Positions 4,128-22,375 of a stretch of 24,551 nt of DNA are shown in pieces. The DNA comes from Candidatus Iainarchaeum sp. (lineage in GTDB: Archaea > Iainarchaeota > Iainarchaeia > Iainarchaeales > Iainarchaeaceae). The notes beneath the pieces were generated by a model that did no database searches, was not told where the DNA came from, and was given only the letters and a program-made list of their open reading frames with translations. The first letter of the stretch is position 1, and each line of letters starts with the position of its first letter. The stretch lies in NCBI GenBank assembly GCA_038895675.1, contig JAWANB010000006.1, forward strand, positions 1 to 24,551, in the 5' to 3' direction. Both the position numbers and the translations under genes were made by a program.

Positions 4128-4241
4128 GCCATCATTTCCATTTTTTGTTCTAAAAAACTTGTTTGGAAATAGTTTTAAATATTAAATAATTCTTTAATTG
4201 GTTTGTTAAATTGTTTTTTTATTGTTTTTTTTGGGTTTAAA

Positions 4242-6014
4242 ATGTTTGAAATTATTTTTTTGTTCGGGTTAATAGTTTTGCTTGGTTTTTTTAGTAGGTG
4301 GCTTTTTGAAAATACTAAAGTTCCAGAGCCATTGATTCTTCTTGTCTTTGGTTTTATTTTGGGGCCTTTAGGCTTGTTGAATTTTTTTTCTATTTCTAAT
4401 CTTGATTTGGTTCAGTTCAAGGAGGCTTTACCTGTAGTTGGTGCTATTGCTTTAGTATCTATTGTTTTTGAGGCTAGTTTGAGGCTTAAGGTCAAAGACT
4501 TTCCTAAGGATTTTTTTTATTCTTTATTGTTTTCTGTTTTAAATCTTGGTTTATGTGTTGTGCTTTTGACTGCTTTGGTTAGGTTTGTTTTTGGTTGGAG
4601 TCCAATTAATTCTTTTATTTTGGGTTCTATTTTAGGCGCTATTTCTTCTTATTCTTCTTATTCTATATTGCCATTTGTGAAAACCACTAATTCTTTGCGT
4701 TCTGCCTTGTACTTTGAAAGCACTTTGTCCACTATTTTTGTTTGTGTTTTAACTTTAGGTATTATGAAGTATAGTTCTTTGCCATTTTCTAATCAGAATT
4801 CTTTTGCTTCTATTTTATTTTCTTTGTTTTCTGTTTCTTTTATTTTTGGTTTATTTTTAAGTTTGTGTTTATTGTTTTTGCTTTTGCATTTTAACATTAA
4901 TCGTTTTGGTCGTTTGGTCTTGTTTTCTGTTGTGTTAATAATTTATTTTGTTGATTTCGTTATTTTCGGTGGTGTTGGTGTTATTTCTGTTGCTTTGATT
5001 GGTTTTGTTTTGGCTAATTCTGAGTTATTTTTAAAGTTGTTGGGAAAACCTAATTTTTCTTTTGACAATTCTTTAACTTCTTTTCAATCAGAGATTTCTA
5101 TTTTTGTTAATACCTTTTTCTTTGTTTATTTGGGCATGATTTTTGATTTGTCTCAAATTTCTACTTTGGCTATATTTTTTGTAATCTCGATAGTTTTAGT
5201 AATGCTTTTTTCAAGGTTTTTAGTAGCTTTTGTTTTGAAAAATTTTGTTAAATCACAAAAACACGAAGATTTTTTGCGTGTTGTTTTTATTCCTCGTGAT
5301 TTGTTAAGTGCAGTATTGGCTTCTTTCGTGTTTATTTATTCTCCTTCTAGTAGTTTCATTATTGACACAATTATTTTGGCTATTGTTTTTTCTACAATTT
5401 TTACTTCCGTTGCTTTGTTCTATTATGAGAAAATTTTTAAGGATTCTTTCCTTTTTAAGAAAGAAATTCAGTTGGTTGATGGTAGAAAAGTTTTGATTAG
5501 GACTTTTACTAAGGATGACGTTGGCAAGCTAAAAAATTTTTTGAACAAATTGGTTGAAGAAGGTGCCTACATTGCCATTGATCAGAGGCTTGATACTGAA
5601 GACGAACGTGAAATGGTTAATGACATGATTTTAAGGATGAATCGTAAAGAATTAATTGTTTGGGTAGGAGTTCATGATAATAGAATTATCGCCAAGGTTT
5701 CTGCTGAAAAAATGTCAGGTAGAGAAAGAGACAACGTTTCTTTAAGTTTTTATGTGGATAAAGATTTCAGAGGAGTTGGCCTTGGCACTATTTTGATAAG
5801 ACTTATTGTTAACGAAGCCTTAAAGACTTTTGATCCTCACAATCTCTACTTGACAGTTTACTCTGATAATACTAAAGCCATTAAACTTTATGAGCGAGAA
5901 GGATTTGTCAAGTGCGGTGTTTTGCCAGGTTGGGTAAAACACAATAACAAATACCTAAACAGAGTTTACATGGTTTATAAGCCAAAAAAAGAAAAAGCAT
6001 TAGAAAATAGTTAG
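4242..6014 (+). CDS. NhaP/CPA1-like cation:proton antiporter domain fused to a C-terminal GNAT acetyltransferase
   Basis: About 12 hydrophobic helices with KVPEPLILLVFGFILGP, FFFVYLG and PRDLLSAVLA; the C-terminal ~180 aa carry GNAT motifs VDKDFRGVGLGT and VYSDNTKAIKLYEREGF. Start placed at the first ATG (4242). Confidence 0.85.
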   Translation: MFEIIFLFGLIVLLGFFSRWLFENTKVPEPLILLVFGFILGPLGLLNFFSISNLDLVQFKEALPVVGAIALVSIVFEASLRLKVKDFPKDFFYSLLFSVLNLGLCVVLLTALVRFVFGWSPINSFILGSILGAISSYSSYSILPFVKTTNSLRSALYFESTLSTIFVCVLTLGIMKYSSLPFSNQNSFASILFSLFSVSFIFGLFLSLCLLFLLLHFNINRFGRLVLFSVVLIIYFVDFVIFGGVGVISVALIGFVLANSELFLKLLGKPNFSFDNSLTSFQSEISIFVNTFFFVYLGMIFDLSQISTLAIFFVISIVLVMLFSRFLVAFVLKNFVKSQKHEDFLRVVFIPRDLLSAVLASFVFIYSPSSSFIIDTIILAIVFSTIFTSVALFYYEKIFKDSFLFKKEIQLVDGRKVLIRTFTKDDVGKLKNFLNKLVEEGAYIAIDQRLDTEDEREMVNDMILRMNRKELIVWVGVHDNRIIAKVSAEKMSGRERDNVSLSFYVDKDFRGVGLGTILIRLIVNEALKTFDPHNLYLTVYSDNTKAIKLYEREGFVKCGVLPGWVKHNNKYLNRVYMVYKPKKEKALENS

Positions 6015-6103
6015 AAAATTGAATAAAAAAGTAATATGTAAAAATTGGTCTTTGCAAAATATTTTAAGTAATTCATAAAAAGGCGTTGCCAATTATTATT
6101 TGT

Positions 6104-7780
6104 ATGAGTCGCTTTATTGAAAAAGAACTTAAATCTTTGTTAGAAAAAGTAGTTTCTAATAATCCTAAAGCCAAAACCTCGGTTTTGGAAGAAGCCTACT
6201 TTTTTTCTAAGATTGCTCACAAAGACCAAAAACGTTTGTCAGGAGAACCATATTTTTCTCATCCTTTAGCAGTCGCAAATTCCCTAGCAGACTTTGGTTT
6301 TGACGAAATAGTTGTTTCTTCTGCTTTGTTGCACGACGTTGTAGAAGACTCCAATATTAGTTTAGCAGAATTAAGACGCCTTTTCGGCAAAGACATAGCA
6401 AATTTAGTTAGCGCTTTGACCAAATTGGATTTAGTAGCTTTCAGGTCAAGGAAAGAACACACCGCCGCTAACGTTGTTAAAACAATAATAGCTTCTTCCA
6501 AAGACTTGCGAGTCCTTATAATAAAGCTTTTTGATAAACTTCACAACCTTGAAACACTCTCTTACTTAGACAAAGAAAGAAGAATCAGAATAGCATCAGA
6601 CGCCCTCTTAGTATACGTCCCTATAACTCAACGCCTTGGCTTGAATTTTTTAAAAAGAAAAATGGAAGACTTGTGCTATGCTAACCTTGAACCACGAGAT
6701 TTTAAAAAATTCAAAAAATCGTTGATGCCTTTCAGCAGAGCCAAAGACAAAGAAATATCAAAAATAATTAAAACCCTAAAAAAACAAAGATTTACTAAAG
6801 ATTGGTCGTTTTTGACTTTCTGTAAGTCGTTTTATTCATTGAGAATGAAAATGCGAGTTCGTGGAAAAAAAATCGAAGAATTGAACGACATAAAAGTTTT
6901 GAAGATTATTGTCCCATCAAAAAAAGATTGTTACTTTGCATTAGGTGCAGTCCATGAAATATTCAAGCCAATACCTAAAAAATTCAAAGACTATATTGCA
7001 ACTCCATCATATCTTTACCAGGCTTTGCACACCCAAGTAATAAGTCCAAAAAACAAGCCTGTAAAAATTTACATTCAATCCAAAGAAATGTTTGAATTAG
7101 GCGAATACGGAATAATCTATTTATTCAAATCAAAAAGCAAAAGAATCCAAGAATTCAAAAAAATATTTTATCTCAACAGAAACGTAAAATACAACGACAG
7201 CAAAGAATTGATTAGCGATCTAAAACTCGACTTTTTAAACAAGTCTATTGTAGTATTCACAGCTAATGGGGAAATGATAAAACTACCAAGCGATTCAACA
7301 GTAATTGACTTTGCTTATCTTACAGACCCAACAGTTGCAGATAAGTCAATTAAAGCCGAAGTTAACGGAAGAATAGTCCCACTTTGGACAAAACTATTTG
7401 ACGGAGACAGAGTAAAAGTAATACACGCAAAAAAACCAACAATACAAATAAGTTGGCTTTGCTTTGCAACCTCCGAAAAAGTAAAAAAAGACATAGAAAG
7501 CACACTAAAAAACAGCATAATACCATTAGAAATTTCAGGACACGTAAAATTCAGAATTGACTCAATCGACAAACCAGGCTTAGTAGGAAAACAAGCAAAA
7601 ATTCTTGCTGACAACGGATTCAACATAGAATCAGGAATAACAAAAGTAAACGAAGACAGAAAAACAGGTTATTCAGAATTCATAGTAAAAAACCTAAAAG
7701 GCTCTAATTTACAAAAAGCAATAGAACAACTAAAAAAAATGAAAGAAACAATAAAACTCAACGTAGACTATTTTAAATAA
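6104..7780 (+). CDS. Long RelA/SpoT homologue (HD hydrolase - degenerate synthetase - TGS - ACT)
   Basis: HKDQKRLSGEPYFSHP, ALLHDVVED, IKLFDKLHN; DCYFALGAVH, KFKDYIA, YQALHT; TGS VFTANG..IDFAY..VNGRIVPL; ACT DKPGLV..NGFNI. ATG at 6104. Confidence 0.92.
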   Translation: MSRFIEKELKSLLEKVVSNNPKAKTSVLEEAYFFSKIAHKDQKRLSGEPYFSHPLAVANSLADFGFDEIVVSSALLHDVVEDSNISLAELRRLFGKDIANLVSALTKLDLVAFRSRKEHTAANVVKTIIASSKDLRVLIIKLFDKLHNLETLSYLDKERRIRIASDALLVYVPITQRLGLNFLKRKMEDLCYANLEPRDFKKFKKSLMPFSRAKDKEISKIIKTLKKQRFTKDWSFLTFCKSFYSLRMKMRVRGKKIEELNDIKVLKIIVPSKKDCYFALGAVHEIFKPIPKKFKDYIATPSYLYQALHTQVISPKNKPVKIYIQSKEMFELGEYGIIYLFKSKSKRIQEFKKIFYLNRNVKYNDSKELISDLKLDFLNKSIVVFTANGEMIKLPSDSTVIDFAYLTDPTVADKSIKAEVNGRIVPLWTKLFDGDRVKVIHAKKPTIQISWLCFATSEKVKKDIESTLKNSIIPLEISGHVKFRIDSIDKPGLVGKQAKILADNGFNIESGITKVNEDRKTGYSEFIVKNLKGSNLQKAIEQLKKMKETIKLNVDYFK

Positions 7781-7821
7781 AGTTCAACATTTTTAATCAG
7801 TTTAGTAAAACAATATTTGAA

Positions 7822-8066
7822 GGGCCCGTAGCTCAGTTTGGATAGAGCACCTGCCTTCTAACCCTTTTCTTTTCGTTGGCACGAAAAGAAAAGCGTTAAT
7901 GGAAAAGAAAAGTGCAAGTTTTCTTTTTTCCATTGAAAGAAGAGCGTTAACGAAAAAGAAAGATGACCATTTCTTTCTTTTTGCTAGGAAGCGTTAATGA
8001 AAGTTTCTTTTTCATAAGAGAAGGGAAGTAAGCAGGGGGTCGAGGGTTCAAATCCCTCCGGGTCCG
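7822..8066 (+). tRNA. tRNA-Arg(TCT) with a 170-nt intron at position 37/38 (exons 7822-7860 and 8031-8066)
   Basis: GGGCCCG-TA-GCTC-AGTTTGGATA-GAGC-A-CCTGC-CT-TCT-A / A-GCAGG-GGGTC-GAGGG-TTCAAAT-CCCTC-CGGGTCC-G. BHB: CTTC 7855-7858 pairs GAAG 8025-8028, with TAA bulges at 7859-7861 and 8029-8031. No encoded CCA. Confidence 0.93.
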
Positions 8067-8205
8067 CATTAACCCTTTTCTTTCCTTTCACCAAGGAAAG
8101 AAAAGCGTTAACGGAAAAGAAAGGTGGTGTTTTTTTTTCTTTTTTTTTATTGATGGGTTTTTTTATCAAGGAAAGGTTGTGTTTTTTTTCTTTTTTTTAT
8201 TAATG
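7861..8205 (+). repeat. Array of purine/pyrimidine hairpins punctuated by AGCGTTAA, inside and downstream of tRNA-Arg
   Basis: AGCGTTAA at 7892, 7943, 7990 and 8104; perfect 13-bp stems 7864-7876/7881-7893 and 8075-8087/8093-8105; direct repeat GAAAGGTKGTG(T)nC(T)nATTRATG at ~8119-8155 and ~8171-8205. Confidence 0.85.
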
Positions 8206-8313
8206 AAGTTTAGTGTTATTTGTGAAGAAAGGTGATTATTTTTATTTTACCATGTAAAAAGAAAAATTGCTGAGAAAGGCAGATTATTAAATAAAATTGT
8301 TTTAGAGATTTTT

Positions 8314-10011
8314 ATGTTCGAAGAAGCTAAAGTTGTTTTGGCAAAGGCGCTTTCAAAAACCAATTCAAGAACTGATTTTTTTAGTTTGCTTGAATGCCCT
8401 TACGACAGGTCTTTCGGAGACTTTGCTTTGCCTTGCTTTAAGCTTTCTCATGAAAAAAACCCTAATCAAACAGCTTTAGAATTGAAAGATAAATTGGTTT
8501 TGCCTAAAATTTTTAGGTCTTGTGAAGTCAAGGGACCTTACTTAAATTTTTTTTTCAACGAATTAGAAGTAGTTAAAAAAATTGTTCCAGCCATAATTTC
8601 CCAGAAAAGTGCTTATGGCAAGGCAAAAAGAAAAAGAGAAAGAATTATTGTAGAGTATTGCCAAGCAAATCCTATGAAAGCTTTTCATATTGGCCATACT
8701 CGTAATATTTGTTTGGGTGAAGCAATAGCAAAAATCTTCGAATACTTTGGCGAAAATGTTTTTAGAGTAAATTATTGTGGTGACGTTGGGCCTCACGTGA
8801 GCAAATCAATTTACGCTTATCGTTATCTTTCTCAAGAGCCAGAGCCTTTTTCTCTGGCAGAAAAAGAAAAGTGGCTAAACAAGTTGTATGCTTTGGGTGA
8901 AAAGGCTGTTTCGGAAGATAAAGCATTGCAAGAAAAGATGCGTGAAATGGTTGTTTTGCTTGAAAAAGGCGATAAAGATTTGAAAAAAGATTGGCTCTAC
9001 TTGCGTTCTATTAGCTTTGATTGTTTCAATAGAATTTTTGAACAGCTTGGAACAAGGTTTGACAAAATCATTTGCGAAAGCGAAGTTGAGAAAGAAGGAA
9101 TAAAAATTGCTTTAGACCTTGAAAAGCAAGGCTTTGCAAAAAGAGATCAAGGCGCAATTATTGTGGATTTAGAGTCTTATGGTTTAGGCAAGTTTTTGAT
9201 TTTAAAGAGTGATGGCGCTGCCCTGTATTCTACAAAAGACATAGCTCTCGCCAAGCTTAAAAAAACAGAGTTAAACGCAATTAAGTCTTACAACATAGTA
9301 GGTTCAGAACAATCTTTTTACTTTAAGCAGTTGATCAAAACTATAGAGCTTCTCAACCAAATTAAGAAAGATTATTGTGAAACCATTCATTTGCCTTACG
9401 AGTTAGTAAACGTTGAAGGAGCCAAAATGTCTTCTAGATTAGGCAACGTCATAACTTATACTGACTTGTTTGAAACGATTTTTAACAAAACTTTGGAAGA
9501 AACAAAAGCAAGGCATTCTGATTGGCCTAACGAAAAAGTTTTTAATGTTGCTGAAAAAATAGCTTTGGCTGCTTTAAAGTATGGAATGCTTTCACAAGAT
9601 AGAAACAAAACTTTGGTTTTCAATTGGGAAAAAGCTATAAAAATGGAAGGAGAAACAGGGCCTTTCATATTGTATAGTTATGCAAGAGCTTCAAGTATTT
9701 TGCGAAAAAAAAGTTTTGATTCTTTGCCAAAAAAATTTGTGCTTGAAACAAAAGCGGAAAAAGACTTGGTTGTTTTGTTGGCAAAACTTGATTTTGTTGT
9801 AAAACAAGCTTATGATTATAAAGCGCCTAACAAGTTAGCTCAGTATTTGATTGACTTGAGCAAGTCTTTCAATGCTTTTTATAGAGATTCTCCTGTTTTG
9901 TCTTGTGAAGGTGACCAATTGAAAACTAGGCTTTCTTTGGTTTATGCTACCACATTAATGCTTGAATTAGGTTGTAGTTTGCTAAACATTTCTTTGGTTG
10001 AAGAAATGTAA
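8314..10011 (+). CDS. argS: Arginyl-tRNA synthetase
   Basis: FGDFALPCF, VEYCQANPMKAFHIGHTRN, KSDGAALYSTKDIA, KMSSRLG, GETGPFILYSYAR. Confidence 0.97.
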   Translation: MFEEAKVVLAKALSKTNSRTDFFSLLECPYDRSFGDFALPCFKLSHEKNPNQTALELKDKLVLPKIFRSCEVKGPYLNFFFNELEVVKKIVPAIISQKSAYGKAKRKRERIIVEYCQANPMKAFHIGHTRNICLGEAIAKIFEYFGENVFRVNYCGDVGPHVSKSIYAYRYLSQEPEPFSLAEKEKWLNKLYALGEKAVSEDKALQEKMREMVVLLEKGDKDLKKDWLYLRSISFDCFNRIFEQLGTRFDKIICESEVEKEGIKIALDLEKQGFAKRDQGAIIVDLESYGLGKFLILKSDGAALYSTKDIALAKLKKTELNAIKSYNIVGSEQSFYFKQLIKTIELLNQIKKDYCETIHLPYELVNVEGAKMSSRLGNVITYTDLFETIFNKTLEETKARHSDWPNEKVFNVAEKIALAALKYGMLSQDRNKTLVFNWEKAIKMEGETGPFILYSYARASSILRKKSFDSLPKKFVLETKAEKDLVVLLAKLDFVVKQAYDYKAPNKLAQYLIDLSKSFNAFYRDSPVLSCEGDQLKTRLSLVYATTLMLELGCSLLNISLVEEM

Positions 10012-22263: not shown

Positions 22264-22375
22264 GGGGCTGTGGTCTAGCTTGGTTAGGATTCAGCGTTCG
22301 GGTGGTTTTTGGTTTAAATCGCTTTTTTCTTTCCAGAAAAACGCTGCGGCAGGAGTTCGAATCTCCTCAGCCCCA
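22264..22375 (+). tRNA. tRNA-Pro(CGG) with a 38-nt intron (22303-22340)
   Basis: GGGGCTG..CAGCG-TT-CGG-G / A-CGCTG-CGGC-AGGAG-TTCGAAT-CTCCT-CAGCCCC-A; relaxed BHB (TTCG/AGAA with one G.A mismatch; bulges GGT and AAA). Confidence 0.9.

Follow-up and report, generated by a model that had tools for sequence, protein, structure and literature searches.

The tRNA-Arg(UCU) gene and its intron

The window, that is, the whole stretch of 24,551 nt that we analysed, carries on its forward strand a tRNA-Arg(UCU) gene (7822-8067, anticodon TCT), followed directly downstream on the same strand by the arginyl-tRNA synthetase gene (ArgRS, 8314-10011). Direct reading and the intronless orthologues divided the tRNA gene into a 5' exon (7822-7860), an intron of 170 nt (7861-8030) and a 3' exon (8031-8067). 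The intron interrupts the gene at the canonical position 37/38, where the intronless orthologues join CTTCTA to A-GCAGG. ARAGORN returned identical gene limits when introns were allowed, and the intron has the limits proposed in an earlier note made from the sequence of the window. The gene was missed by ARAGORN with default settings and by Rfam at the gathering threshold, and it is the only Arg(TCT) gene that ARAGORN found in the assembly. The lesson for annotation is that an essential tRNA-Arg(UCU) gene escaped the default tRNA finders. The host genome (G000) is AT-rich, 0.84 Mb in size and 91.7% complete, and every tRNA intron in it lies at the canonical position.

The earlier note would have given up its reading in the case of a misassembly, or of a repeat unit found neither in relatives nor elsewhere. 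Logan contigs from two runs, which may be the source samples of the MAG, covered 7600-8115 and 7600-8085 and were free of differences and gaps; the unit was present in relatives and elsewhere, as described below. Logan contigs of other organisms joined the sequence at 7861.

Both halves of a motif of the bulge-helix-bulge (BHB) type could be identified on the forward strand. The 5' half (7855-7863) consists of the helix strand CUUC (7855-7858), the bulge UAA (7859-7861) and CC (7862-7863), the first two bases of the outer helix. The 3' half (8023-8031) consists of GG (8023-8024), the helix strand GAAG (8025-8028) and a second UAA bulge (8029-8031), whose last base, A8031, is nucleotide 38 of the tRNA. 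The motif claimed earlier, with TAA in both bulges, is thus present: two 3-nt bulges enclose the 4-bp helix CUUC/GAAG between flanking helices, and the outer helix comprises only the 2 bp CC/GG (7862-7863/8023-8024). The whole pre-tRNA folded with -88.9 kcal/mol (z = -4.75), and none of 200 shuffled sequences was equally stable. The minimum free energy (MFE) structure was without the BHB; folds constrained to form it reached -84.6 to -85.6 kcal/mol, about 3 to 4 kcal/mol above the MFE. A search of the genome gave one match to the splicing endonuclease EndA (PF01974, a 170-aa ORF at C30:251-763), and the ligase RtcB is present in two adjacent frames. The motif and these two genes point to a BHB-type tRNA intron, and its excision and circularisation are predicted.

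Hairpin units in the intron and the trailer

The 8-mer AGCGTTAA occurs in the intron at 7892, 7943 and 7990, with spacings of 51 and 47 nt, and once more at 8104, outside the tRNA. Its four copies compare with 0.84 expected, and at least four were found in none of 100 shuffles. The three intron copies and the four hairpins described in the earlier note were confirmed, hairpins 1 to 3 in the fold and the fourth by eye. The statement that each 8-mer is followed by YGRAAA applies to the copies at 7892 (TGGAAA) and 7943 (CGAAAA) and fails for that at 7990 (TGAAAG).

The intron begins with a direct copy of a conserved element (7859-7905, forward strand), composed of a TAACCCTTTT-inner stem-AAAAGCGTTA hairpin (7859-7898) and the tail ATGGAAA. 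The inner part of this hairpin has 13 perfect pairs (7864-7876/7881-7893), and it can be extended to 7859-7898 with a single C.C mismatch at 7863/7894. The first AGCGTTAA (7892-7899) lies within the element. In the conserved basal stem, AGCGTTAA is the 3' arm; it is not, as had been supposed, punctuation that separates hairpins.

The remaining parts of the intron follow on the same strand. Hairpin 2 (7897-7935), identified in the fold, has its purine arm first (7897-7911/7919-7935). The fold and the repeat analysis then showed the second AGCGTTAA (7943-7950) with hairpin 3 (7953-7963/7972-7982), together spanning 7943-7982. This unit is a 35-nt copy of the unit at 7892-7926; both belong to a family that we call D1, and their identities to the reference copy at 8104-8138 are 77% and 80%. 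The third AGCGTTAA (7990-7997) and hairpin 4 (7997-8003/8009-8015, read by eye) span 7990-8015. Close to the 3' end lies AGAGAAGG (8017-8024), which pairs weakly with 7862-7869. Relatives have ...AAAAGGGTT/GGTTG here, which suggests that AGAGAAGG may be what is left of an inverted partner element's end.

A second full element was recognised by repeat analysis and folding at 8069-8146 on the forward strand, 2 to 3 nt past the tRNA's 3' end. Its hairpin (8069-8087/8093-8111) has 19-nt arms that are 95% complementary, and it is followed by the tail CGGAAAAG and by a purine-first hairpin, which runs into T runs. The trailer hairpin and tail recur in the intron on C7, with a loop two bases longer, and in an array on C20. 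Two degenerate copies of the 35-nt D1 unit (8156-8190 and 8212-8246, forward strand, 66% and 71% identity; total span 8156-8246) lie in the spacer before ArgRS.

The TAACCC element in this genome

At its core the element has an imperfect palindrome, (T)TAAC.C.CTTTT - variable loop or inner stem - AAAAG.C.GTTA(A), in which a C.C mismatch is conserved; the 3' tail reads CGGAAAA(G). We refer to it as the TAACCC element. The genome-wide check suggested in the earlier note, for the 8-mer with flanking inverted repeats, succeeded: a relaxed scan for the 3' half of the element located 18 units at six loci of G000. These are tRNA introns on C1, C6, C7, C12 and C15 and the C20 array, where the count for C6 includes the tRNA-trailer copy. 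Besides the Arg intron, they comprise three more tRNA introns, a diverged Tyr variant and the intergenic array. A C7 copy followed by GGAT was missed by the relaxed pattern, and six additional matches are probably fortuitous; the same scan found no half-elements elsewhere in G000. Scanning for an 11-mer with two mismatches allowed yielded 935 matches, which were uninformative.

Unlinked loci have near-identical stretches of about 45 to 85 nt in common, and tandem units measure 47 to 58 nt. By eye, the Arg and Ser(GCT) introns of G000 are nearly identical over their first ~85 nt, and the trailer copy also matches the beginning of the Cys intron as well as the C20 array. These similarities would fit recent copying between loci, and we count them in favour of mobility.

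The TAACCC hairpin is under constraint. There are 47 inner segments with a length of 10 nt or more; 20 of them lengthen the basal stem by at least 4 pairs, compared to 1.8% of shuffles. Two conserved pairings are mutually exclusive: that of the basal stem and that of the tail with the 5' arm. In the Arg gene, the basal stem takes U36 and A37 into its pairs. We also considered whether the minimal element contains a BHB of its own and rejected this by hand, since in most copies UUAA finds no pairing partner in the four bases upstream.

Distribution among archaea and orthologous introns

A 17-mer search returned 121 loci, 44 of them with the 5' half as well. All 44 two-part matches were in archaeal MAGs, assigned to Aenigmatarchaeota, Woesearchaeota/Nanoarchaeota, Micrarchaeota, Iainarchaeum, Thermoplasmata, Hadarchaeota and others, and the 5' half was found with none of the bacterial 17-mer matches. 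The two-part motif comprises about 28 fixed bases, reversed-pattern controls gave 0 or 1 match, and more than half of the 44 copies touch a tRNA gene. Because pattern searches pick intact blocks, part of the apparent conservation is an ascertainment effect. Seven loci in viral contigs were all chance matches in coding DNA, with neither hairpin nor tail. The distribution is patchy: the strict pattern was present in 10 of 215 genomes of the phylum, and the relaxed pattern in 11 of 58 high-quality genomes; of the 31 genomes related to a Woesearchaeota MAG, 3 carried the element. Within one family, f1, it was present in 9 of 23 genomes. Genomes carry 1 to 28 copies, many of them inside tRNA genes.

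We also compared the orthologous tRNA-Arg(TCT) genes of 24 relatives, as the earlier note had advised. Eleven are intronless, two have short introns free of the motif, eight carry the element and three carry degenerate forms, and the junctions between exon and element are of three different kinds. The orthologous Arg introns keep the blocks and the C.C mismatch, and their inner stems have changed by compensatory substitutions. The blocks are conserved across genera, and both features are retained even in the diverged Tyr variant.

Among relatives, whole intron bodies of ~118 nt are homologous between tRNA-Arg and tRNA-Ser(GGA), and the last 6 to 10 nt alone differ. The measured identity (e.g., 104 of 158 columns in G004) is diluted by exon columns and an overlong row. 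The Arg and Ser(GGA) introns of these relatives consist of a direct and an inverted element, which form terminal inverted repeats of about 45 nt.

Copies outside tRNA introns

Copies also occur at stop codons and in spacers, where there is no BHB. In G043, a Woesearchaeota MAG, 10 of the 14 copies have a scorable neighbour, and all 10 are co-oriented with the neighbouring genes. By eye, some free copies have TATA-like boxes upstream. The element has its 5' end within 0 to 3 nt of RNA processing sites, namely splice sites, both canonical and in the D-loop, and the 3' ends of tRNAs. The leading copy is sense in all tRNA introns examined and stands right at the 5' splice site, and the register at which TAACCC starts varies (position 36, i1, i2 or i3).

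Another archaeon, G041, contains a 106-nt derivative in about 28 near-identical copies in both orientations. A search with this derivative gave 42 matches, of which 20 were near-full-length at 96 to 100% identity and one was at 90%. One copy interrupts a PCMT gene that runs on the opposite strand; the two pieces of this gene match Pfam positions 18-77 and 75-205. Another, antisense, lies within an RNase P RNA match, and inverted copies abut tRNA 5' ends. Each of the 12 G041 copies examined is flanked by TAA at either end, and an empty site with one TTA would agree with the PCMT alignment. A target-site duplication, as in a MITE of a DDE transposon, would account for this, and so, equally well, would insertion 3' of a TAA by an element that ends in TAA. 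By eye, the derivative has no terminal inverted repeats, and in the fold of one copy the left hairpin alone was independent of the flanks. No long autonomous copy was found in G041; the partial copies that we checked were artefacts of contig ends or gaps, or a shortened variant.

Search for a mobilising enzyme

The Y1/RAYT or IS5-like transposase that the earlier note had proposed to look for did not turn up in this genome: Y1_Tnp, TnpB, RVT_1, DDE_Tnp_1, Phage_integrase and IS110 were all absent from G000, at its 91.7% completeness. The same set without TnpB was searched in G043, with no match to any of the five families, and in several element-bearing genomes, to which none of the families was common. 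Y1 (PF01797) was absent from G000, G041, G043, G044 and G045 and present only in G042, where no element copy lies beside either of its two Y1 genes. DDE_Tnp_1 (IS4/IS5-type) was absent from G000, G043 and G046, and reverse transcriptase from all five element-bearing genomes searched. Phage_integrase (PF00589) had no match in G000 or G043. The AAC...GTT of the element presumably resembles an integron attC site, and we tried this as an identity for the element. It was rejected because of the missing integrase (PF00589, in G000 and G043); the arrays hold no ORFs.

Origin of the Arg intron

The Arg intron probably belongs to a mobile, non-autonomous, REP/MITE-like family of hairpin repeats, the TAACCC element, which builds transposing tRNA introns and was lengthened here by tandem duplication. 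The earlier proposal of a REP/MITE-like repeat sheltering in a tRNA is supported in substance: the unit occurs elsewhere in the genome, in relatives and in other archaeal MAGs, and G041 shows a burst of copies and a split gene. The notion of shelter falls short: in this lineage almost all of the intron body consists of the element, and different tRNAs have this body in common. The second proposal of the earlier note, in which the tRNA carries a functional multi-hairpin circular RNA, may or may not apply.

Several steps can be proposed. The element would move at the DNA level by means of an enzyme, land beside TAA and persist where it is harmless, at stop codons, in spacers, outside tRNA ends and at tRNA splice sites. 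At splice sites, its 5' arm CCCUUUU may pair with a purine tract further 3', in its own tail or in an inverted partner, and this pairing would form the outer helix of the BHB. The single short EndA would then excise the intron and RtcB rejoin the exons, with release of the intron, probably as a circle. Comparison with relatives partly supports an ancestral Arg intron in which a middle hairpin stood between a direct and an inverted element. Here, the inverted partner would have decayed, and a 47-51-nt unit of basal-stem arm and tail hairpin may have been tandemly duplicated, which would have produced the three AGCGTTAA copies and the length of 170 nt. Several observations restrict this mobile-repeat reading. 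The enzyme families searched gave no mobilising enzyme, and no autonomous element was seen. The leading copy is always sense at the 5' splice site, for which simple random DNA insertion is no explanation. Each intron ends, on its 3' side, in a stretch complementary to the anticodon loop of its own tRNA, and this stretch cannot derive from the element. The co-orientation in G043 and the conserved blocks fit selection on the RNA, the outer BHB helix has only 2 bp here, and the MFE structure lacks the BHB.

We tentatively consider a wider proposal, in which the TAACCC element is the free-living form of the transposing archaeal tRNA intron, a tiny hairpin transposon. It would be moved by an unrecognised kind of enzyme, or by host enzymes that act on the folded, single-stranded non-template strand of heavily transcribed tRNA genes, and would represent a general route of intron gain in archaea. 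An inverted pair carries its own outer BHB helix, and its insertion into an exposed tRNA loop or an existing intron would thus give a spliceable intron.

A rather unlikely alternative, yet the strongest of the rivals, is that the element is a functional RNA module. The hairpin with its C.C mismatch and tail would be a protein-binding or processing signal, the tRNA gene a promoter and processing platform with EndA or RNase Z making the 5' end, and the 170-nt intron a multi-site (circular) RNA with a cellular role, mobility being secondary. Such selection at the RNA level fits both the co-orientation with genes in G043 (10 scorable of 14 copies) and the conservation of blocks across genera. It would also agree with the 5' ends near processing sites in three settings, the strictly sense leading copy in every intron examined, the blocks and C.C mismatch kept under compensatory change of the inner stem (the Tyr variant included), the two exclusive pairings and the TATA-like boxes noted by eye above some free copies. 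However, presence is patchy among close relatives, tRNA-Arg is intronless in 11 of 24 of them, antisense copies lie in or beside RNA genes, and identical copies have burst in both orientations with disruption of a gene. There is no Rfam family match, and we know of no partner protein for the TAACCC hairpin, which we also count against the module.

Mobility at the RNA level appears improbable. The excised (circular) intron would be re-inserted into BHB-forming RNAs by EndA and RtcB and then copied back to DNA, so that the splice sites define the element. This would account for intron bodies that start with the first intron bases, stop just short of the tRNA-specific strand and are common to different tRNAs, for element 5' ends at cleavage sites and for the constant sense orientation in introns. 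Intron transposition, with unknown mechanism, is also described for Thermoproteales in a review (PMC4090602). Against it, the homology boundary keeps no fixed register to the splice site (36, i1, i2, i3), antisense and intragenic copies exist, other copies lie at stop codons and in spacers without a BHB, and no reverse transcriptase was found in five of five element-bearing genomes. An ordinary lineage-specific intron grown by replication slippage of purine/pyrimidine tracts, with chance or convergent similarity, would suit the homopurine/homopyrimidine arms, the 47-58-nt tandem units and the AT-rich genome, but it is very hard to reconcile with a motif of ~28 fixed bases at 44 archaeal loci (no bacterial matches, reversed controls 0 or 1), with about 45 to 85 nt near-identical between unlinked loci and with a PCMT gene split by a derivative.

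Relation to known systems

The closest parallel is found in Thermoproteales. Very similar introns in tRNAs of different isoacceptors imply gain after speciation there (Fujishima et al. 2010, as described in PMC4090602), and the 2014 review, in the part that treats this transposition, calls the mechanism unknown and supposes it to act at the DNA level (PMC4090602). The present family likewise has near-identical introns across isoacceptors, namely Arg/Ser(GCT) and Arg/Ser(GGA). Unlike in Thermoproteales, the intron body is also found outside tRNAs (in trailers and spacers, at stop codons, and within an RNase P RNA gene and a coding gene), the element occurs in MAGs of several phyla and forms inverted pairs and tandem arrays, and the host has a 0.84-Mb genome, a single short EndA and introns at the canonical position only. 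The abstract of a 2026 preprint on Asgard tRNAs reports no general link of introns to mobile elements and closes with 'how they arrive remains open'. The TAACCC element is a concrete candidate for the spread of archaeal tRNA introns. One sequence family spans all relevant states, as intron body in many tRNAs, present or absent in the same tRNA, outside tRNA ends, free at stop codons and in spacers, and in a recent amplification that broke a protein gene; the arrival of archaeal tRNA introns is thus testable with a defined sequence.

With bacterial REP/BIME repeats, the element shares the short imperfect palindrome with conserved flanks, the single, inverted-pair or array copies, and probably the mostly extragenic location with co-transcription with neighbouring genes (many copies lie inside tRNA genes). 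It differs from REPs in that G000, G041 and G043 have no RAYT/Y1 gene, that the REP tags GTAG and CGTC are missing, that the link to tRNAs is strong, and that the same core is found across phyla; REPs are usually species-specific. Elements of the IS605 type insert 3' of TTTAA. Like the PATEs of IS200/IS605 elements, the 106-nt derivative has no terminal inverted repeats, an irregular terminal hairpin, a target that is AT-rich and ends in TAA, a right end TTTAA and an empty site that retains one TAA. In contrast to PATEs, the TAACCC hairpin stands directly at the end rather than subterminally and there is no second-end hairpin, and neither TnpA/TnpB in G000 nor TnpA (Y1) in G041 or G043 was found.

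According to passages of a prokaryotic MITE census, some DPANN genomes have very high MITE densities (PMC11602168). Our elements are likewise small non-autonomous repeats, and the introns of relatives have terminal inverted repeats of about 45 nt. However, each such 'terminal repeat' is a complete hairpin element, the minimal form is about 35 nt, and no partner transposase was found; residence in tRNA introns, a feature here, is absent from those passages of the census (PMC11602168). A literature search for the motif strings, whose scope did not extend to Fujishima et al. (2010) or to the supplements of PMC11602168, gave unrelated primer-like matches only.

Rfam searches at permissive thresholds over 7700-8400 gave nothing credible, and in those of the window and 32 loci, at gathering and permissive thresholds, the element matched no family, the matches being confined to neighbouring rRNA, RNase P RNA and tRNA. 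By eye there were no motifs of a K-turn, C/D or H/ACA RNA or a known ribozyme, and these identities, which likewise had no Rfam match, were rejected. A precedent for a structured RNA in a tRNA intron is the tRNA-Trp intron, which carries a box C/D RNA and is released as a circle, as stated in part of a published account (PMC12558985). The Arg intron is comparable in being structured, and circular release is likely here; unlike the box C/D intron, it has no C/D boxes and no Rfam match, and its element is found in many tRNAs as well as outside them.

Structure of the tRNA-Arg gene and its intron

The tRNA-Arg gene (anticodon TCT, plus strand) was read directly as two exons, 7822-7860 and 8031-8067, which together form a normal tRNA with the acceptor stem GGGCCCG/CGGGTCC, the anticodon stem CCTGC/GCAGG and the loop CTTCTA|A. 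The 170-base intron recognized in the earlier note was confirmed at 7861-8030, between nucleotides 37 and 38. ARAGORN with introns allowed gave the same gene limits (7822-8067) with the intron misplaced; default ARAGORN and Rfam at the gathering score missed the gene. Since ARAGORN found 39 tRNA genes in the assembly (G000; 838,897 bp, 43 contigs, 91.7% complete) and no other for Arg(TCT), the intron has to be removed. A motif of the bulge-helix-bulge (BHB) kind with UAA in both bulges (7859-7861 and 8029-8031), as previously claimed, could be drawn around a central helix of CUUC (7855-7858) and GAAG (8025-8028), with an outer helix of CC/GG only. The pre-tRNA fold (-88.9 kcal/mol, z = -4.75) was far better than those of shuffled sequences. 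Folds forced to include the BHB reached -84.6 to -85.6 kcal/mol, and the unconstrained optimum pairs the anticodon loop elsewhere. Contigs assembled independently from two public hot-spring runs, which may be the MAG's own source samples, matched 7600-8115 and 7600-8085 with zero differences, so there is no sign of the misassembly considered in the earlier note.

G000 encodes the RNA ligase RtcB and one splicing endonuclease, EndA, of 170 aa. Its length and its one catalytic domain lead us to regard this EndA as of the homotetramer type, which fits all introns in G000 being canonical. RtcB matches at C26:1422-2962 (minus strand, L205) were spread over two neighbouring open frames (profile 1-248 and 205-426); the gene may be frameshifted, split or interrupted by an intervening element.

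A hairpin element with a conserved mismatch

The 8-mer AGCGTTAA occurs at 7892, 7943 and 7990 in the intron, as already noted, and at 8104 outside it (four copies versus 0.84 expected; none of 100 shuffles reached four). Repeat search and folding showed, directly after the tRNA, a hairpin of 19 bp, with a single C.C mismatch, at 8069-8111 (TTAACCCTTTTCTTTCCTT-TCACC-AAGGAAAGAAAAGCGTTAA), and the first intron hairpin (7859-7898) has the same structure. Because these hairpins are alike, AGCGTTAA is the 3' arm of a basal stem with TTAACCCT as its 5' arm, and not a fixed punctuation between hairpins as first described. The four hairpins themselves are present, the first three by repeat search and folding and the fourth by eye. 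The YGRAAA reported after each intron 8-mer held for 7892 and 7943; the copy at 7990 is followed by TGAAAG. The full core, here called the TAACCC element, reads (T)TAAC.C.CTTTT, a variable middle and AAAAG.C.GTTA(A), followed by the tail CGGAAAA(G). The later intron 8-mers sit in a 35-nt unit of arm, tail and purine-first hairpin. Copies of this direct-repeat family lie at 7892, 7943 and 8104, with degenerate ones at 8156 and 8212, and by sequence the repetition in and after the intron is a tandem duplication.

In the optimal fold, 7945-7951 pairs with 7993-7999 (near-palindromic CGTTAAC/GTTAATG of the second and third copies), enclosing the third hairpin; junctions of this palindromic kind might also let separate molecules pair. 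GTTAAC is scarce in G000 (119 sites observed versus 276 expected from base composition), and the element holds about 1/8 to 1/7 of these sites.

In G000 the motif with its tail is restricted to five tRNA introns, the tRNA-Arg trailer and an array on contig C20, so the unit does recur elsewhere in the genome, a point that the earlier note had proposed to check. Besides tRNA-Arg on C6, where intron and trailer both carry it, the introns belong to tRNA-Ser(GGA) on C1 (four 50-nt tandem units), tRNA-Cys(GCA) on C7 (two subtypes, five units), tRNA-Ser(GCT) on C12 and tRNA-Tyr on C15, a diverged copy in which CGTTAACG became CGTCGACG with the C.C mismatch retained. The anticodons are our own reading, because ARAGORN misplaces the introns of these genes. 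The element thus occupies five of the ten intron-bearing tRNA genes, and these have the five longest introns (roughly 126 to 260 nt). By eye, the first ~85 nt are nearly exact between the Arg and Ser(GCT) introns, and the trailer copy corresponds to the beginning of the Cys intron and to the C20 array. The latter (C20:1-300, minus strand, at least four units) lies outside any tRNA and runs off the contig end; a TATA-like TTTAAAAATA begins 19 nt upstream of its TAACCC, and it may be an independently transcribed copy. A genome scan found no half-elements elsewhere in G000.

Intron bodies shared between tRNAs

Sixteen pattern matches were found in the family of G000 outside G000 itself. Fourteen lay at the 5' beginning of tRNA introns (Arg TCT, Ser GGA, Pro TGG, Pro CGG, Arg GCG, Leu TAA and His GTG), one lay directly after a tRNA and one after an ORF; the form that the repeat mostly takes in this lineage is that of a tRNA intron. 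Alignment showed homology between the introns of tRNA-Arg (G021, G004) and tRNA-Ser(GGA) (G004, G011, G022) that runs from TAACCC to ...AAGGTTG; they diverge only in the last 6-10 nt, which pair with their own anticodon loop. In these ~125-nt introns a direct element stands first, at the 5' end; an inverted one follows and stops 6-11 nt short of the 3' splice site, and the two tails form the middle hairpin. The outer BHB helix is supplied by the ends of this pair. The window intron has the direct copy only, plus a partner remnant, GAGAAGG, within 8017-8024. A review (PMC4090602) describes the same phenomenon in Thermoproteales as intron transposition, its mechanism unknown.

Patchy distribution

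Orthologous tRNA-Arg(TCT) genes of 24 relatives were found through the exon, independently of the motif. The element was carried by eight (intron lengths 70-175 nt) and, in degenerate form, by three more. Eleven had no intron, one of them in the same genus, and two genus-mates had 27-30-nt introns without the motif. One degenerate form, a 35-nt minimal intron, makes a textbook BHB with the tail paired to the 5' arm. Three exon-element junction registers were observed (CTTCTA|ACCC, |TAACCC and |ACTAACCC). Compensatory changes distinguish the inner stems (CGT/ACG, CTC/GAG, CC/GG, CCC/GGG, CTT/AAG). The basal stem is extended by at least four pairs in 20 of 47 distinct inner segments (≥10 nt) versus 1.8% of shuffles; fold z was below -2 in 28 of the 47, and other inner segments are unstructured. 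In the tRNA-Arg introns of G019, G016 and G010 (L144, L149, L152), a second, unrelated ~50-nt hairpin of the CCTTGCAGG...CTGCAAGG type interrupts the element's CGT^TAACG junction, a nested insertion at TTAA.

The strict two-part pattern matched 10 of 215 genomes of the phylum, nine of them within the family of G000 (23 genomes), and a relaxed pattern matched 11 of 58 high-quality genomes, the 11 spread over five families. The backwards-read control gave one match in the 215-genome search and none in four others. When one genome per prokaryotic species was scanned with the 17-mer AAAAGCGTTAAYGGAAA, at least 121 loci were found, at least 44 of which add A[AC]C[CT]CTTT within 70 nt upstream. All 44 listed are archaeal MAGs, labelled Aenigmatarchaeota, Woesearchaeota/Nanoarchaeota, Micrarchaeota, Iainarchaeum, Thermoplasmata, Hadarchaeota, one "Methanobacteriota" and unclassified archaea, among others. 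The other loci listed, mostly bacterial and lacking the 5' half, look like chance matches; viral contigs gave chance matches only.

At least 24 of the 44 listed copies touch a tRNA gene. Thirteen lie in tRNA introns and two directly 3' of a tRNA (ARAGORN); by eye, six more are in multi-intron tRNAs, D-loop introns included (L012, L031, L039, L055, L076, L115), and two more directly 3' of a tRNA (L008, L015). One copy is inverted against a tRNA 5' end (L085). Another is antisense within an archaeal RNase P RNA match (L102:135-469, minus strand; 48.8 bits, under that family's threshold), where it presumably occupies a peripheral helix. Beyond the 44, L032 (5' half GACCC) has the element in a tRNA-Ala intron of a 16S-23S spacer. 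Several element-bearing tRNA genes of Aenigmatarchaeota type (L012, L031, L039, L055 and L076) have an extra T-loop intron after GTTCAAA, and they were missed by ARAGORN and Rfam.

Probable mobility at the DNA level

A 106-nt repeat in a 1.1-Mb archaeal MAG (G041) has the element at its start and CACTTTAA at its end. Of its 42 matches, 20 are near-full-length at 96-100% identity, one is at 90% and many are truncated at contig ends; the two-part pattern counts 28. Twelve copies examined had unrelated, AT-rich flanks with TAA on each side and lay in both orientations relative to neighbouring open frames, three exactly on the upstream frame's stop codon. A protein-L-isoaspartate methyltransferase gene running on the other strand is interrupted by one copy, leaving pieces that match Pfam PCMT positions 18-77 and 75-205. 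When aligned with four intact homologues, the gene is consistent with an empty site retaining one TTA, with no indel, which would agree with a 3-bp duplication and equally with a TAA-ending element inserting 3' of TAA.

The same core lies within repeats of ~130 nt in G217 (seven copies) and ~81 nt in G015. The latter has 11 copies: two inverted ones abut tRNA 5' ends, two direct ones abut 3' ends and two are in tRNA introns. A Woesearchaeota MAG (G043), around which only 3 of 31 genomes have the element, carries 14 minimal copies with 2-4-nt loops. Two lie directly after tRNAs, five to six on or just after ORF stop codons and three between a TATA-like box and a start codon; all 10 with a scorable neighbour are co-oriented with the neighbouring genes.

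The Y1/RAYT or IS5-like transposase suggested earlier did not emerge: Y1_Tnp, DDE_Tnp_1, RVT_1, Phage_integrase, IS110 transposase and TnpB (searched in G000 only) were not found in this incomplete MAG (91.7%), nor were the first five in G043. None of these five was common to the element-bearing genomes searched, all incomplete MAGs, and two Y1 genes of G042 had no element nearby.

Nature of the element

We lean, by a little, towards a selfish mobile repeat resembling REP, MITE or PATE elements, close to one of the two readings in the earlier note. The grounds are its patchy distribution across phyla, a burst of copies that are identical, a gene broken by one of them, antisense copies, presence and absence in one tRNA and shared intron bodies. 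Blind insertion does not explain the sense orientation, the location right at the 5' splice site, the link with tRNA ends, the retained C.C mismatch or the two alternative pairings. These features suggest either that the element would target exposed single-stranded loops or ends of folded, heavily transcribed tRNA genes, or an RNA-level function or filter.

That the element is primarily a functional RNA is a less probable reading. The compensatory changes in inner stems would suit it, and the 11 intronless tRNA-Arg orthologues count against it. Intron mobility at the RNA level would accommodate the shared bodies and seems improbable beside copies on stop codons and in a methyltransferase gene. 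Ordinary slippage could produce tandem units and is hardly credible beside the two-part motif at 44 archaeal loci and the split gene.

Both small palindromic repeats and families of kindred introns in different tRNAs are already known. Among the papers searched, we found none joining the two through one defined hairpin element.

Neighbouring genes

Directly upstream of the tRNA, 6086-7780 (plus strand) encodes a 564-aa RelA/SpoT-type protein (HD_4, RelA_SpoT, TGS, ACT) in this 0.84-Mb genome; long RSH proteins are unusual in archaea. Further upstream, 4203-6014 (plus strand) is a single 603-aa frame with an Na+/H+ exchanger domain (28-404) and a C-terminal GNAT acetyltransferase domain. The arginyl-tRNA synthetase gene (8314-10011, plus strand) follows tRNA-Arg(UCU) after a 246-nt spacer full of repeat and T runs, which in several relatives is apparently only ~50-60 nt (by eye). 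A second intron-bearing tRNA at 22264-22375 (plus strand; Rfam tRNA, 46.8 bits) was read as tRNA-Pro(CGG) with a ~38-nt intron free of the element; the Pro(CGG) intron of the relative G011 has it.
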